A DNA stretch of 64,000 nucleotides from Actinomycetota bacterium (GTDB lineage: Bacteria > Actinomycetota > Thermoleophilia > Gaiellales > F1-60-MAGs149), in the NCBI GenBank assembly GCA_026392355.1, contig JAPLCF010000041.1:4561-68560 (forward strand). The letters are read 5' to 3'. This document shows, in pieces, positions 34,256 through 40,438 of this stretch; the first letter of the stretch is position 1, and each line of letters starts with the position of its first letter. The notes beneath the pieces are model-generated. The model had not been told where the DNA came from. It did no database searches and saw only the letters and a list, made by a program, of their open reading frames with translations. Both the position numbers and the translations under genes were made by a program.

Positions 34256-35692
34256 GTGTTTGTGAATCGTTTCCCATTGCTCGAGCCCGTCTCGCCCGAT
34301 GGACTCGAGGCGCTTGAGCGCGGCTGGATGCGGCTCGTCTCCGAGATCGGCATCCGCTTCGATCACCCCGAGGCGTTGCGCCTCCTTGGCGAAGCAGGGC
34401 AGCGCGTCGAAGGCGACATCGTGCACTTCGACCCCGCCTGGGTGCTCGAGATGGTCGCGAAGGCGCCCAGTGAGTTCACGCTCCACGCGCGTAATCCCGC
34501 GCGGGACATGCGCTTCGGCGGAAACCACATGGTGTTCATGCCGGTGCAGGGCCCGCCGTTTGTGCGGCGCGGCATGGAGCGACGTGACGGCACGCTGCGT
34601 GACTTCGAGGATTTCTGCCGACTGGCGCAGGCGATTGACGAGTACGACTCGCCTGGCAGCCTGCCCGTCGAGCCCAATGACATTCCGCTTGACTCGCGCC
34701 ACCTCGATGAGATTCGCGCGCTGCTGACACTCACCGATAAGCCGTTTGGCGCCAACGCTGTCAGCGTCGATGCGGTGAACGACGCGTTGGCGGCAGCGCG
34801 CATCGTCTTCGGTGATCGCATCGATCGCGAGGCGTGCACGTACACGAACATCAACGTCAACTCGCCGCTGGTCTACGACGAGCGCATGCTCGATGCGCTG
34901 CTGATCTACGCACGCGCCGGACAGCCCGTGCTCGTGGTGCCCTTTCTGCTGATGGGGGCGATGGCGCCCGCGAGCGTCCCAGCGGCCTTGGCCCAGCAGT
35001 TCGCCGAAGCGCTCACGGGCATCGCGCTGATGCAGCTGGTCCGTCCTGGCTGCCCGGCCGTGCTCGGCTCGTTCCTATCGACGACGGACCTGAAGAACGG
35101 CTCGCCGGCATTCGGTGGCCCCGAATCGCACTTCGGTCTGCTCGCGTCGGGCCAGATGGCGCGTCGCTATGGCCTGCCGTGGCGAGCGGGTGGTGGGTCG
35201 CTGACCACCAGCCCCCTGCCCGATGCGCAGGCCGCCTGGGAAGGCATGAACACCATGCAGGCCTCGTTCCTCGCCGGAGCCAACCTGCACATGCACTGCG
35301 GTGGCTGGCTCGAGGGTGGTCTGGTCGCGTCGTTCGAGAAGCTGATCATGGACCTCGACATGCTGCAGACGCTGATCAAAGAGTTCACGCCGATCGACAT
35401 CGACGAGGAGTCGCTTGCGTTCGGTGCCCACGACGAGGTGCGCCACGGCGGGCACTTCCTCGGCGCCGCGCACACGATGGAACGCTTCCGTGATTGCTTC
35501 CACCGGCCGCTGCTCGCGACGACCGACAACTACCAGCGCTGGAGCAAGGACGGCGGGCTCGACGCTGCTGCCCGAGCAACGGGGATCTACCAGCAGCTGC
35601 TTGCCGACTACGAGCAGCCTGCGATGGATGAGGCGATGCGTACGGAGCTCGACGAGCTCGTGACGCGCCGTCGCGCTGAACTCGGCGACTGA
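34256..35692 (+). CDS. Trimethylamine methyltransferase (MttB) superfamily protein, non-pyrrolysine
   Basis: APSEFTLHARNP, NVNSPL..D, GLPWRAGGGSLTTSPLPDAQA, GWLEGGL..SFEK..D. GTG start at 34256 inferred. Confidence 0.9.
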   Translation: MFVNRFPLLEPVSPDGLEALERGWMRLVSEIGIRFDHPEALRLLGEAGQRVEGDIVHFDPAWVLEMVAKAPSEFTLHARNPARDMRFGGNHMVFMPVQGPPFVRRGMERRDGTLRDFEDFCRLAQAIDEYDSPGSLPVEPNDIPLDSRHLDEIRALLTLTDKPFGANAVSVDAVNDALAAARIVFGDRIDREACTYTNINVNSPLVYDERMLDALLIYARAGQPVLVVPFLLMGAMAPASVPAALAQQFAEALTGIALMQLVRPGCPAVLGSFLSTTDLKNGSPAFGGPESHFGLLASGQMARRYGLPWRAGGGSLTTSPLPDAQAAWEGMNTMQASFLAGANLHMHCGGWLEGGLVASFEKLIMDLDMLQTLIKEFTPIDIDEESLAFGAHDEVRHGGHFLGAAHTMERFRDCFHRPLLATTDNYQRWSKDGGLDAAARATGIYQQLLADYEQPAMDEAMRTELDELVTRRRAELGD

Positions 35693-35737
35693 CGCGCAAC
35701 CGTCGCGCCGCCCCGTTTCTGTCATTACTATCAGGGC

Positions 35738-36871
35738 ACGAATTCGCCGCGCCTTGCCCTCACCGCCTGCACCGCCACGCTCGCTGCCATCGCCGCCCTA
35801 ACGGGCACGGCCGGCGCAGCCACGACGCCCCGAGCCACCGCCTGCGGTGGCACCATCGCCGTCGCGACGGTCGCCAAGTCTGGCCTAGATGGCGCGGCGA
35901 ACCAGGCCAATTGGGCGCGCCTTGCGGTGACGTACGAGAACGCGCAGTACGGCACGACCTTCAAGGTTGTGGTCAAGAACGGCTTCAACACCGCTGCCTC
36001 CGCAAAGAGCATTGCCAAGTCGGTTGCCGCCGATGGTTCGATCATCGGCGTGGTGGGCTACCAGACGTCGACGGCCACGGCCGCCGGCGGTCCGGTGCTG
36101 AGCAAGGCTGGACTCGCGTACGTGTCGGGGTCCGCCACGCGCACGTCGCTCGCTGACGGTTCGCTGCCCGGCTTCTATCGCGTTGTCGCCAGCGATGCCC
36201 TACAGGGTCCCGCTATCGGGCGCTACGTGCAGAAGGACCTGAAGGGCAAGAACGTTGTGATCGTCCAGCAGTCGGATACGTACTCCACGGATCTCGCCGC
36301 CAGCGTCGCCAAGAGCCTCACCAATCGTGGGGTCACGAACACCCGGATCTCCGTGGGAACGGGCACCGACAACTACGCCGCCGACGTGGCGAAGATCGGT
36401 GCCGACGTTGACGTCGTCGTGCTCCCGTTCGTCAACGCCCCGCAGGCCGAGGTGTTCGCTGGCGCGCTGACGGCCGCGGGACGCACGCCGAAGCTCGTCG
36501 GTGGCGATGCTCTCTTCGGGCCGTCCTTCAACGTCCCCGGCGCGACTGTCGCAACCTTCCTCGGCGATATGACCAGCAATGCCTTCGGCCGTAAGGTCGC
36601 TGCGACCTACGAGGCGAAGTACGGCAAGCTCAATCAGTCCGGCGCCGCTGCGTACACGGCGGCTCGCGCCGTGATGGCAGCCGGGCGCGCAGCCTGCAAC
36701 ATCTACGGCACGGCAAACCGTGACGGCGTCGCCACTGAGATGCCTTACGTCGAGCTCGCGAAGTCGATCTTCGGAACCCCGATCGCCTTCCAGCGCAATG
36801 GCAACGTCAAGGGTGGCGTGATCCACTTCTGGCGCGTGCTGCCCAACGGGACGTTCGACTTCGTCTGCTGA
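35738..36871 (+). CDS. Branched-chain amino acid (LivJ-like) periplasmic binding protein; apparent ACG start
   Basis: YVSGSAT..SL, FYRVVASDALQG. The frame is open upstream of GTG 35927 and encodes a signal peptide plus a segment homologous to the paralogue at 37590. Confidence 0.8.
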   Translation, partial: TNSPRLALTACTATLAAIAALTGTAGAATTPRATACGGTIAVATVAKSGLDGAANQANWARLAVTYENAQYGTTFKVVVKNGFNTAASAKSIAKSVAADGSIIGVVGYQTSTATAAGGPVLSKAGLAYVSGSATRTSLADGSLPGFYRVVASDALQGPAIGRYVQKDLKGKNVVIVQQSDTYSTDLAASVAKSLTNRGVTNTRISVGTGTDNYAADVAKIGADVDVVVLPFVNAPQAEVFAGALTAAGRTPKLVGGDALFGPSFNVPGATVATFLGDMTSNAFGRKVAATYEAKYGKLNQSGAAAYTAARAVMAAGRAACNIYGTANRDGVATEMPYVELAKSIFGTPIAFQRNGNVKGGVIHFWRVLPNGTFDFVC

Positions 36872-36936
36872 GCGCAGAATCGTTTCGGCTGGGGTAAAGC
36901 CGATACAGTGCTCGTCGTGAGCGTCGAGGAACAGTT

Positions 36937-37593
36937 GTGACCGGGCACGGGCATGGGCACGGCCACGCGGCCGGTCACGGGACGCCGCACGGGCCACGCT
37001 GGTTGTCGCTCTCAATCGCCGTGGTGCTGGGCGTTGCCGCGATCTTTGCCGGCGTCACCGCCTGGCACGCGAACGTCTTGAGCGGCCACGCGGTTGAGTA
37101 CTTCACGCTCTCCACCCAGGCTGTCAACGACGCGAACGCGAGCAGTCAGGATGCCGATCGCGGTATCACCAGCCAACGGCAGCTGTTCATCGACTACCGC
37201 GCGGCGCTCGATAGCGGTGGCGAGTCCCGCGCGGCCGCCATTCGCGGGATGATGAACGCGAGTACGCTCCAGGCCATCGCCTGGTGGGAAGCGCAACCCG
37301 CGGGCGACCGACCGCTGTCGCCGTTCGTATCCGCGAACCCGGCGTGGGATGCGCCAGGGGACGTCGTCAGCGCACAGGCCGCCCTTGACAACGCGAACGA
37401 GTACCTTCACCTCGCCGAGGAGTACCTCGCCCGTTCACATACGCTTGAGCTCTTTGCTGCGCTGCTCACTATCGCCTTTCTGGCCGGCGGTCTGACCGGC
37501 GTCTTCGAGTCGATCCGGGCCAAGATGCTCCTGCTCAGCGTCAGCGTGGTCGTGCTCATCGGATGCCTGACCGGAACGGTGGTGTTCTGGTGA
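36937..37593 (+). CDS. Membrane protein with His-rich N-terminus (DUF4337-like)
   Basis: GHGHGHGHAAGHGTPHG, one N-terminal TM, extracytoplasmic helical region, two C-terminal TMs. Confidence 0.7.
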   Translation: MTGHGHGHGHAAGHGTPHGPRWLSLSIAVVLGVAAIFAGVTAWHANVLSGHAVEYFTLSTQAVNDANASSQDADRGITSQRQLFIDYRAALDSGGESRAAAIRGMMNASTLQAIAWWEAQPAGDRPLSPFVSANPAWDAPGDVVSAQAALDNANEYLHLAEEYLARSHTLELFAALLTIAFLAGGLTGVFESIRAKMLLLSVSVVVLIGCLTGTVVFW

Positions 37594-38735
37594 CGCGGGC
37601 CTGGTTCGGCATCACGCTCATCACGCTCGCGCTGTTCGCCGCCGCCTGCGGCTCGAGCGGAACGAAGGACGACGAGCAAGCCGGTGCCGCGACGTTCGAT
37701 GCCTACGCGTGTGACGGCGACGTCGCGGTGATGGCCCCGTACGGCGGCACCAGCGATACCGACTACGTCCAGATGAACTGGGCGCGGGTGGCGCTCGACA
37801 AGTTCAATCGTGACCACGGCACCAGCTTCACGCTCTATCCGAGCAACGTCGACTTCGACGCCGACGCCGGTGCGGCCGCCGCGCAGCGCATCGTCAGCGA
37901 TCCCAACGTGATTGGCGTCGTCGGTCCGAAGACATCCGTCGTGACGAAAGCAGCAGGGCCGATCTTCGATATGGCGGGGCTTGCGTACATCTCGCCGTCC
38001 GCGACCAACGCAAGCCTCACCGATGGCAGCCTCAAGAACTTCTTTCGCGTCGTGGCGAGCGACGCCCTTCAGGCGCCGCGAATGGCCGAGTTCATCGCCG
38101 ACGATCTCGAGGCGAAGGGCGTGCTCATCGTGCAGGATGACGAGCCCTATTCGGAGGGGCTCGGGAACGCTGTCTACCAGCAACTCAAGGCGCGCGGTGT
38201 CAATGTGCAGCGCGTCAACGTGAAGGTCGGGCAGGAGTTCTACTCCGAGGTCGTCACGCGTGCGACACCGCAGGTGGACGTGGTTGTCGCCCCGCTCCTG
38301 GTCCCGTCTGATGCGCGCCGGCTCGTCACCGAGCTGCACGCGGCAGGCAGATACCCGGCGATCGTCGGCGGTGATGCGCTGTTCGTGGGGGCCTTCGGTG
38401 TACCCGGCGCCTACGTGACCACCTACGCACCCGATATCTCCCGGCATCCGGAGGGACGCGACATCATCCGGCTCTACGAGTCGATCTTCGGCGACTTCGA
38501 GTCCTTCGGTGGCCCCGCCTACGTGGCGATGGAGGTCGTGTTGACCGCGGCGCTCGACGTCTGCAAGCGCGATGGTGGCGTGACGCGCAGTGCCGTCACG
38601 ATGCAGATTCCCAAGGTGCAACTCGAGGAGAGCATCCTTGGGATGCCGATCGCATTCGACGGGCGCCACGAGGTCGAAGATGCCCGGATCCACGTCTACC
38701 GTGTCGGCCTCAACGGTTACGAGCTGGTCGGCTAA
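37590..38735 (+). CDS. Branched-chain amino acid (LivJ-like) substrate-binding lipoprotein
   Basis: Lipobox FAAAC, YISPSATNASL, FFRVVASDALQ, DDEPYSEGLG. GTG overlaps the upstream stop. Confidence 0.85.
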   Translation: MTRAWFGITLITLALFAAACGSSGTKDDEQAGAATFDAYACDGDVAVMAPYGGTSDTDYVQMNWARVALDKFNRDHGTSFTLYPSNVDFDADAGAAAAQRIVSDPNVIGVVGPKTSVVTKAAGPIFDMAGLAYISPSATNASLTDGSLKNFFRVVASDALQAPRMAEFIADDLEAKGVLIVQDDEPYSEGLGNAVYQQLKARGVNVQRVNVKVGQEFYSEVVTRATPQVDVVVAPLLVPSDARRLVTELHAAGRYPAIVGGDALFVGAFGVPGAYVTTYAPDISRHPEGRDIIRLYESIFGDFESFGGPAYVAMEVVLTAALDVCKRDGGVTRSAVTMQIPKVQLEESILGMPIAFDGRHEVEDARIHVYRVGLNGYELVG

Positions 38736-38738
38736 CGA

Positions 38739-38766
38739 CAGCGGGGGCGCCGTAGCGCCCCCACTG
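38739..38766. terminator. Terminator hairpin between convergent genes
   Basis: GGGGGCGC-CGTA-GCGCCCCC with outer CAG/CTG. Confidence 0.6.
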
Positions 38767-38803
38767 ATCGTGTCGTGCTGTGTGGCCGCGAGCGGCCGTG
38801 CTG

Positions 38804-40438
38804 TTAGCCCTCGGCGCCGAAGTCCGGGGCCTCTTCGCCGGCCGGATCCGGCGCGGCGGCGAGCACCTCGGCGGGCACCATGCCCTCGTACTGCTCGAAG
38901 TTCTTGACGAACTGGGCGGCCAGCTGATGCGCCTTTTTCTCGAAGGCGGCCGGATCGTCCCACGTCTCGACGGGGTTGAGCAGCTTGGAGTCAACGCCCG
39001 GTACGGCGACCGGGATGTGCAGGCCGAAGATCGGATCCTGGCGCGTCTCGACGTTGTCGAGCTCGCCCGAGACGGCGGCGCGCACGAGGGCGCGGGTCGC
39101 CGCGATCGGCATGCGCTTGCCAACGCCATACGGGCCGCCGGTCCAGCCGGTGTTGACCAGCCATGCCGAGGCGCCGGTCTTCGCCAGACGCTCGCCGAGC
39201 ATCTGGGCGTAGACGCCCGGATCCTGCGCGAGGAACGGCGCGCCGAAGCACGTCGAGAACGTCGTCTGCGGCTCCGTGACGCCGACCTCAGTACCGGCCA
39301 GCTTCGCGGTGTAGCCCGAGAGGAAGTGGTACATCGCCTGCTCAGGCGAGAGCTTGGCGACGGGCGGCAGGACACCGTAGGCGTCGGCCGTCAGCAGCAC
39401 GACCGCGGTCGGTGTGCCGGCACGGCCCTCTTCGACGACGCCCGGGATGGACGTCAGCGGGTAGGCGACGCGGGTGTTCTCGGTGATCGACGAGTCGGCG
39501 AAGTCGATCTCGCGCGTCTCCGAATCCATGATCACGTTCTCGATGATCGAGCCGAACATCTCGGTCGTGGCGTAGATCTCGGGCTCGGACTCGGCCGACA
39601 GGTTGATCGCCTTGGCGTAGCAGCCACCCTCGATATTGAAGACGCCGTCATCGGCCCAGCCGTGCTCGTCGTCGCCGATCAGCGGGCGCTCGGAGTCGGT
39701 CGACAGCGTGGTCTTGCCCGTGCCCGAGAGGCCGAAGAAGACGGCGACGTTGCCGTCCTGGCCGACGTTCGCCGAGCAGTGCATCGACAGCACGCCCTTC
39801 TGGGGCAGGCGGTCGTTCATGATCGTGAAGACGGACTTCTTGATCTCGCCCGCGTAGCGCGTGCCGCCGACGAGAATCTCGCCGCCGGTGAAGTCGATCG
39901 TGACGAAGCCGCTGACGCGCGTGCCGTGCTTCTCGGGATCAGCTTTGAACTCGGGTGCGTGGAGGATCAGCACCTCAGGATTGTGCGAGGGGATCTCGTC
40001 AGCAGTTGCCGGGATCAGCATCGTCTGCGCGAACAGCAGATGCCAAGCGGAGTTCGAGACAACGCGAATCGCCGTGTGATGGTCGGGGTGCGCGCCGGCC
40101 CAGGCGTCGAGCACGTAGACGTCGCCCTGGTTGAGGAAGTCGATCAGGTCCTCGCGGATCAGCGCGTTGTGCTCCTGCGAGATCGGGCGGTTGACCGGAC
40201 CCCACCAGATGCGGTCCTTGGCGCCGGGCTCATCGACGATGAACTTGTCCTTGGGGGAGCGACCGGTGTTCGGGGCGGTGTTGACGACGAGCGACCCGCC
40301 GGCAGCCAACTGCCCGGCGTTCGCGCGCAGCGTGTGCTCATAGAGCTCGGCGGCCGTTAGGTTCCAGTGTGCGTCGCCACTGGGTGCGAGGCCGTGCGTA
40401 TCGAGGTCGACTGAGCCGCGGCGTGTCGTCGTTGCCAT
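38804..40438 (-). CDS. pckA: Phosphoenolpyruvate carboxykinase (ATP)
   Basis: TGRSPKDK, GGTRYAGEIKKSVF, LSMHCSAN, FFGLSGTGKTTLS, LIGDDEHGW, EGGCYAK, CFGAPF. Confidence 0.97.
   Translation of the reverse strand: MATTTRRGSVDLDTHGLAPSGDAHWNLTAAELYEHTLRANAGQLAAGGSLVVNTAPNTGRSPKDKFIVDEPGAKDRIWWGPVNRPISQEHNALIREDLIDFLNQGDVYVLDAWAGAHPDHHTAIRVVSNSAWHLLFAQTMLIPATADEIPSHNPEVLILHAPEFKADPEKHGTRVSGFVTIDFTGGEILVGGTRYAGEIKKSVFTIMNDRLPQKGVLSMHCSANVGQDGNVAVFFGLSGTGKTTLSTDSERPLIGDDEHGWADDGVFNIEGGCYAKAINLSAESEPEIYATTEMFGSIIENVIMDSETREIDFADSSITENTRVAYPLTSIPGVVEEGRAGTPTAVVLLTADAYGVLPPVAKLSPEQAMYHFLSGYTAKLAGTEVGVTEPQTTFSTCFGAPFLAQDPGVYAQMLGERLAKTGASAWLVNTGWTGGPYGVGKRMPIAATRALVRAAVSGELDNVETRQDPIFGLHIPVAVPGVDSKLLNPVETWDDPAAFEKKAHQLAAQFVKNFEQYEGMVPAEVLAAAPDPAGEEAPDFGAEG

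Follow-up and report, generated by a model that had tools for sequence, protein, structure and literature searches.

A gene for a secreted, LivJ-like solute-binding protein from an uncultured freshwater lineage of the Thermoleophilia has probably lost its start codon, and has done so very recently. The gene lies at positions 35738..36871 (+) of the window, i.e., of the whole 64,000-nucleotide stretch of DNA that was analysed, and opens with ACG (35738..35740, +) at the +1 position predicted for a leaderless transcript, where the ancestral codon is ATG. Taken as a whole, the likely reading is that a recent T>C change at 35739 turned the leaderless 5' AUG into ACG, leaving a very young start-loss allele that is null or strongly weakened. 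Strain-specific loss of a start codon is a known kind of event and is most likely what has occurred here, rather than the use of a new kind of start codon. The first-pass annotation of this DNA had offered three options—true ACG initiation, an inactivating ATG>ACG mutation, and a consensus error—and had put ACG initiation in its headline. The evidence laid out below favours the inactivating mutation and not the headlined option.

The locus and its reading frame

The source genome is metagenome-assembled (2.40 Mb in 50 contigs, 93.7% complete, 67% GC), and the window is part of one of its contigs (C16). Its nearest relatives come from freshwater lakes and are labelled “Thermoleophilia bacterium” or “uncultured actinobacterium”. 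Upstream of the binding-protein gene lies a gene for an MttB-family methyltransferase of 478 aa (34256..35692, +; Pfam PF06253 MTTB, 576.6 bits, E 3.6e-173), the TGA stop codon of which (35690–35692) shares its frame with the binding-protein reading frame. Translation of the window shows this frame to be open throughout from 35693 to 36871. Downstream, a gene for a 218-aa protein (36937..37593, +) is placed between two binding-protein genes and overlaps with its 3' end the start of the second one. The N-terminus of the 218-aa protein is rich in His and Gly, hydrophobic stretches lie near its N- and C-terminal ends, and a Pfam search with it returned no family. The second binding-protein gene (37563..38735, +) encodes a Peripla_BP_6 paralogue, as seen by alignment and Pfam, which is 41% identical to the first and has an intact start. 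In three metagenome relatives the same order is found—MttB, binding protein, small protein with two transmembrane segments, second binding protein—with a gene of 214–220 aa at the position of the small protein; judged by this gene order, the four genes are a conserved module.

Counted from 35738, the binding-protein frame comprises 377 codons plus the stop codon. It is assigned to Peripla_BP_6 (PF13458) with a score of 78.1 bits (gathering cut-off 31.7) over residues 47–356, and gap-free codon alignments with its orthologues support its full length. The nearest solved structure is PDB 4GNR (E 4.7e-13), with 1Z15 and 1USG also matching. Its first 27 codons (35738..35818, +) encode the predicted signal peptide (T/M)NSPRLALTACTATLAAIAALTGTAGA, with an arginine in the n-region, an 18-residue hydrophobic core (residues 6–23) and an A-G-A cleavage-type motif; hydropathy peaks at residues 9–27. 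The assignment rests on reading of these motifs in the translation, on hydropathy and on conservation in the orthologues. Since residue 25 of the 4GNR chain aligns with query residue 53, the mature domain should start near residue 28–29. The signal peptide is followed by ACGGTIAVATVAKSG...QANWARLAV, and the segment ACGGTIAV..QANWARLAV parallels YACDGDVAV..QMNWARVAL of the paralogue. Hence, the earlier observation that the stretch lacking a start codon nevertheless encodes a signal peptide and a paralogue-like N-terminus is borne out by translation.

The start region

Between the MttB stop codon and the GTG at 35927, the listing of open reading frames contains no in-frame ATG, GTG or TTG, and translation of the stretch agrees, just as the first-pass annotation had stated. 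In the same stretch, a −10 promoter hexamer of the TANNNT type, TACTAT (35726..35731, +), is followed by the six bases CAGGGC and then by the in-frame ACG, which lies 15 codons behind the MttB stop codon and is separated from it by a spacer of 45 nt. No Shine-Dalgarno leader precedes the ACG, as the −10 box ends only 6 nt upstream; an AGGG is present, but at a distance of 2 nt it is too close to act as a ribosome-binding site. The locus thus presents a canonical start that has been replaced, together with the lack of any alternative start that would keep the whole protein, no in-frame ATG, GTG or TTG being found up to codon 64.

Other ways to supply a start were considered and rejected. A frameshift or a start in an alternative frame is not supported, given that the only TTG nearby, at 35754, is out of frame and runs into a TAA after 15 codons and that the first downstream GTG (35847) and ATG (35889) are both out of frame as well. 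Fusion to MttB by readthrough of its TGA codon was discarded because the spacer shows no conservation at the protein level in the relatives and contains the −10 box.

Orthologues and the ancestral state

When 41 related genomes were searched at the protein level, true orthologues (89–90% identity) turned up in two of them only, termed here G022 and G021. The full orthologue set comprises six lineages known from DNA and about 12 sequences known as proteins, with amino-acid identities of 80–91%. At the codon homologous to the ACG, ATG is present in G022, in G021, in Ga0007791_10025851, in ERZ4199032 and in two KRAE22 contigs. The DNA alignment of the window with G022 and G021 shows CTGTCATTACTATCAGGGCA to be invariant and to be followed by ATG in both relatives versus ACG in the window. 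Further support comes from five orthologous clusters in a large protein collection, the full-length members of which are all 377 aa long and start with MNSPR, MNSSR or MIRSRR.

The promoter is conserved in company with the start codon. All six orthologous lineages have TANNNT-N6-ATG (TACTAT in four, TAGTAT in one, TATGCT in one), and this arrangement is kept while the spacer upstream of the −10 box diverges among them. The closest match to the start region of the window is found in contig L030 (ERZ28593641), in which the sequence from the final codons of MttB through the 45-nt spacer to base 30 of the gene is identical to that of the window save for the T/C difference and one other base; this near-identity around the start indicates a simple point mutation. 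Among the roughly 12 orthologous sequences, none starts with ACG. As every orthologue recovered carries ATG, we take ATG to be ancestral and ACG to be a derived T>C change private to the window strain. The first-pass annotation had called for this comparison, and had held that ATG in all relatives along with the absence of a protein product would reduce the case to simple pseudogenisation; as regards the relatives, ATG in all of them is what was found.

Leaderless starts across the genome

In leaderless genes of Mycobacterium, a TANNNT −10 box directs transcription from the A or G of the ATG or GTG start codon (Shell et al. 2015, PMC4633059). To place the locus in the context of its own genome, the whole genome was scanned for TANNNT followed, after 2–15 nt, by a codon opening a reading frame of at least 100 codons. 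ATG was found 259 times at a spacing of 6 and 139 times at a spacing of 7, over a background of about 16 per other spacing, and GTG 117 and 77 times over a background of about 22. These counts correspond to a 9–16-fold enrichment for ATG and a 3.5–5-fold enrichment for GTG at the leaderless position. TTG (5 and 9 times; background about 9) and ACG (21 and 31 times; background about 30) show no enrichment at that position anywhere in the genome. Altogether, ATG or GTG opens about 590 long reading frames at the leaderless position, roughly 500 in excess of the background; leaderless starts, all of them ATG or GTG, account for between about a fifth and a quarter of this genome's genes.

Within the window, 21 reading frames of at least 100 codons show TANNNT, 6 or 7 nt, and ATG or GTG; the first-pass annotation had put the genes sharing this geometry at about 17, and the pattern is far beyond chance genome-wide. 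Taken together, conservation among the orthologues and enrichment across the genome lend good support to its description of a leaderless promoter and start preceding a signal peptide. Frames lacking a start codon were counted as well: 181 lie behind TANNNT-N6/7 genome-wide over all codons, four of them opening with ACG, which is no excess of ACG. Otherwise this census is uninformative, because it is swamped by the spurious long frames that arise at 67% GC.

The likeness to mycobacterial leaderless genes is close, with the same −10 box 6–7 nt before the first codon, no Shine-Dalgarno sequence, and ATG and GTG alone enriched. At the binding-protein locus, the −10 box is placed as in such genes, but the 5'-terminal codon is neither AUG nor GUG. 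It is ACG in one gene of one strain, and the mycobacterial rule predicts it to be non-functional. For the Thermoleophilia, the corresponding rule (RTG, i.e., ATG or GTG) is inferred from the statistics of this one genome in combination with the mycobacterial data.

Selection on the gene

The 1134-nt reading frame aligns without gaps with three and with six orthologues and contains no internal stop codon or indel. Pairwise dN/dS values among the orthologues are 0.13–0.17. Relative to G022 and G021, 25 synonymous and 11 non-synonymous changes are private to the window, the start codon excluded; at sites that are invariant in six other sequences, the private changes number 10 synonymous and 5 non-synonymous, with similar figures in sister lineages. 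Neutrality of the whole branch is rejected in both comparisons (p = 1e-7 and 1e-3), and the neutral share of the window branch is at most about 13%. Thus, neither stop codons nor indels nor a raised dN/dS point to decay or relaxed selection in the window lineage, and it follows from the lack of decay and the small neutral share that the loss of the start, if real, is very recent. The substitution data themselves would fit a recent start loss and a gene that is still under selection equally well.

Predicted consequences of the substitution

The chain of events that we propose begins with an ancestral gene transcribed from its TANNNT −10 box, with the mRNA beginning at the A of the ATG. A single T>C transition at 35739 would then have changed the 5'-terminal AUG to ACG in the window strain. 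The promoter presumably still fires, so that the mRNA would now have ACG at its 5' end, and a ribosome carrying fMet-tRNA would be unable to engage it. The full-length secreted binding protein is accordingly expected to have dropped to no more than 1% of its earlier amount, or to have disappeared altogether, since leaderless initiation needs pairing of a 5'-terminal AUG or GUG with the initiator tRNA. For comparison, in Escherichia coli, and with a strong ribosome-binding site, ACG belongs to a class of codons that give about 0.1–1% of the initiation obtained with AUG (10.1101/063800). Any initiation at the internal ATC (35855) or GTG (35927) would yield a fragment that lacks the signal peptide, stays in the cytoplasm and is probably of no use. 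The gene would then be a nascent pseudogene or a strong hypomorph, the loss of which may be tolerated by virtue of the paralogue 0.7 kb downstream.

This proposal has a parallel in pseudogenisation that begins with loss of the start codon, and in selection on prokaryotic start codons (Belinky et al. 2017, PMC5622118): AUG is lost here by one transition in one lineage, the relatives keep AUG, and the reading frame is undecayed. The locus differs in that no compensatory new start is seen and that loss of the protein is deduced from the sequence.

ACG as a possible but improbable start codon

Of the remaining interpretations, the one that fares best—and it is still very improbable—holds that ACG is a working, weak leaderless start, decoded by the initiator tRNA and retained to lower the expression of the binding protein. 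An intact reading frame with lineage-specific substitutions that are under purifying selection would agree with it, as would a promoter unchanged from that of the relatives. Precedents exist as well. Low-level initiation at ACG with an N-terminal methionine is known from E. coli behind a Shine-Dalgarno sequence (10.1101/063800), and rare start codons do function in Actinobacteria, the example being the GTC start of sigR (PMC5472188).

It is, however, the comparison with sigR that weakens the case for ACG. Of 34 species, 32 retain the GTC start of Streptomyces sigR, which is preceded by a strong AGGAGGTG ribosome-binding site and regulated by IF3 (Feeney et al. 2017, PMC5472188). What the locus shares with sigR GTC and with infC ATC is a conserved N-terminus lacking ATG, GTG or TTG, which misleads gene callers. 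Yet the ACG is confined to a single strain, with no counterpart in any of the roughly 12 orthologues, and the gene has neither a leader nor a ribosome-binding site that could compensate for the unusual codon. Moreover, ACG, and even TTG, fails to be enriched at the leaderless position in this genome, and when the codon at that position was randomised in mycobacteria, selection yielded ATG and GTG only (PMC4633059). A special, initiator-like tRNA reading ACG was also considered and rejected, as the genome has one ordinary tRNA-Thr(CGU) and four CAU tRNAs. Should ACG function after all, bacteria would have their first natural example of an ACG start, which would at the same time be the first leaderless start other than RTG.

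Reality of the C at 35739

Somewhat less probable still is that the C is a sequencing or consensus artefact, or a majority call with an ATG allele also in circulation. The possibility arises from the nature of the genome, i.e., a metagenome-assembled consensus in 50 contigs at 93.7% completeness, and from the T found in L030, the flanks of which are otherwise nearly identical to those of the window. Against it stands an independent assembly of run SRR20698643: Logan contig SRR20698643_406187 is 100% identical to window positions 35400–39334 over 3935 nt, the ACG included. As this second assembler worked from the raw reads and gives the same C, an artefact of assembly, polishing or consensus calling is unlikely, which speaks against the consensus-error option of the first-pass annotation; a random read error would not assemble twice. 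A balanced polymorphism, in turn, would be apt to interrupt the contig or leave a bubble in it. The Logan contig represents the same strain as the window, and this is the only run of the collections in which the strain occurs. In exact look-ups, the 314-aa product starting at GTG 35927 is recorded once, on this contig; the 218-aa neighbour protein likewise matches the same contig only, and the MttB protein gave no match.

Internal starts and their annotation

Public annotation places the start of the gene inside the frame. The NCBI annotation of the contig uses ATC (Ile40; 35855..35857, +), from which 36868−35855+1 = 1014 nt, or 338 codons, give a 338-aa product beginning MAVATVAKSG... On the Logan contig, automatic gene calling chose GTG (Val64; 35927..35929, +), the first canonical in-frame start, for a product of 314 aa. 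Both products lack the signal peptide that is present in all 377-aa orthologues.

Least probable of all is that the gene is now expressed from one of these codons as a truncated protein that stays in the cytoplasm and has gained a new role or kept a residual one. In its favour are the NCBI record itself, a GGTGG 4 nt upstream of the ATC, and the finding that, in mycobacteria behind a Shine-Dalgarno sequence, ATT initiates robustly and ATC at a low level (PMC4633059). Against it, both starts delete the signal peptide that a solute-binding protein needs, and with the GTG the mature fold would also be short of about 35 residues (as judged from the Pfam match and the 4GNR alignment). The GGTGG and the ATC belong to the codons that specify C-G-G-T-I, which every orthologue conserves, and the GTG is an ordinary valine codon that varies synonymously (GTC or GTT in four orthologues, GTG in two), with no sign of new selection there. 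What at first resembled a cluster of three private substitutions creating this GTG dissolved with more taxa, GTG64 and ACG65 being shared with other lineages and only N66Y remaining private.

With the start-loss reading preferred, the public calls of 338 aa (NCBI, ATC) and 314 aa (Logan contig, GTG) are artificial truncations, and a more fitting label for the locus would be a start-loss allele of a gene of 377 codons. Beyond annotation, the ATG and ACG alleles form a natural pair on the same promoter and reading frame, which could be used to gauge the stringency of leaderless start-codon selection outside mycobacteria. Leaderless starts restricted to RTG in a freshwater Thermoleophilia lineage mirror the mycobacterial rule.

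Relation to branched-chain amino-acid binding proteins

With the LivJ/LivK-type branched-chain amino-acid binding proteins, the protein shares the type I periplasmic-binding-protein domain and the N-terminal secretion signal. The relationship to this type (4GNR, 1Z15, 1USG) is distant, and the window genome has no detectable LivH/LivM permease. In a search for the LivH/LivM-type permease family PF02653, no member was detected in the window genome, G022 or G021; in the genus, 14 genomes out of 26 have one. Likewise, tblastn with the reading frames of a locus from the genus that carries a LivH/M-type permease gene found no convincing match. The binding proteins may, therefore, be orphan type I binding proteins that work with some other membrane partner, as is suggested by three carriers devoid of the permease in which the orthologues are nonetheless under purifying selection. 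The window genome contains five Peripla_BP_6 binding-protein genes in total.
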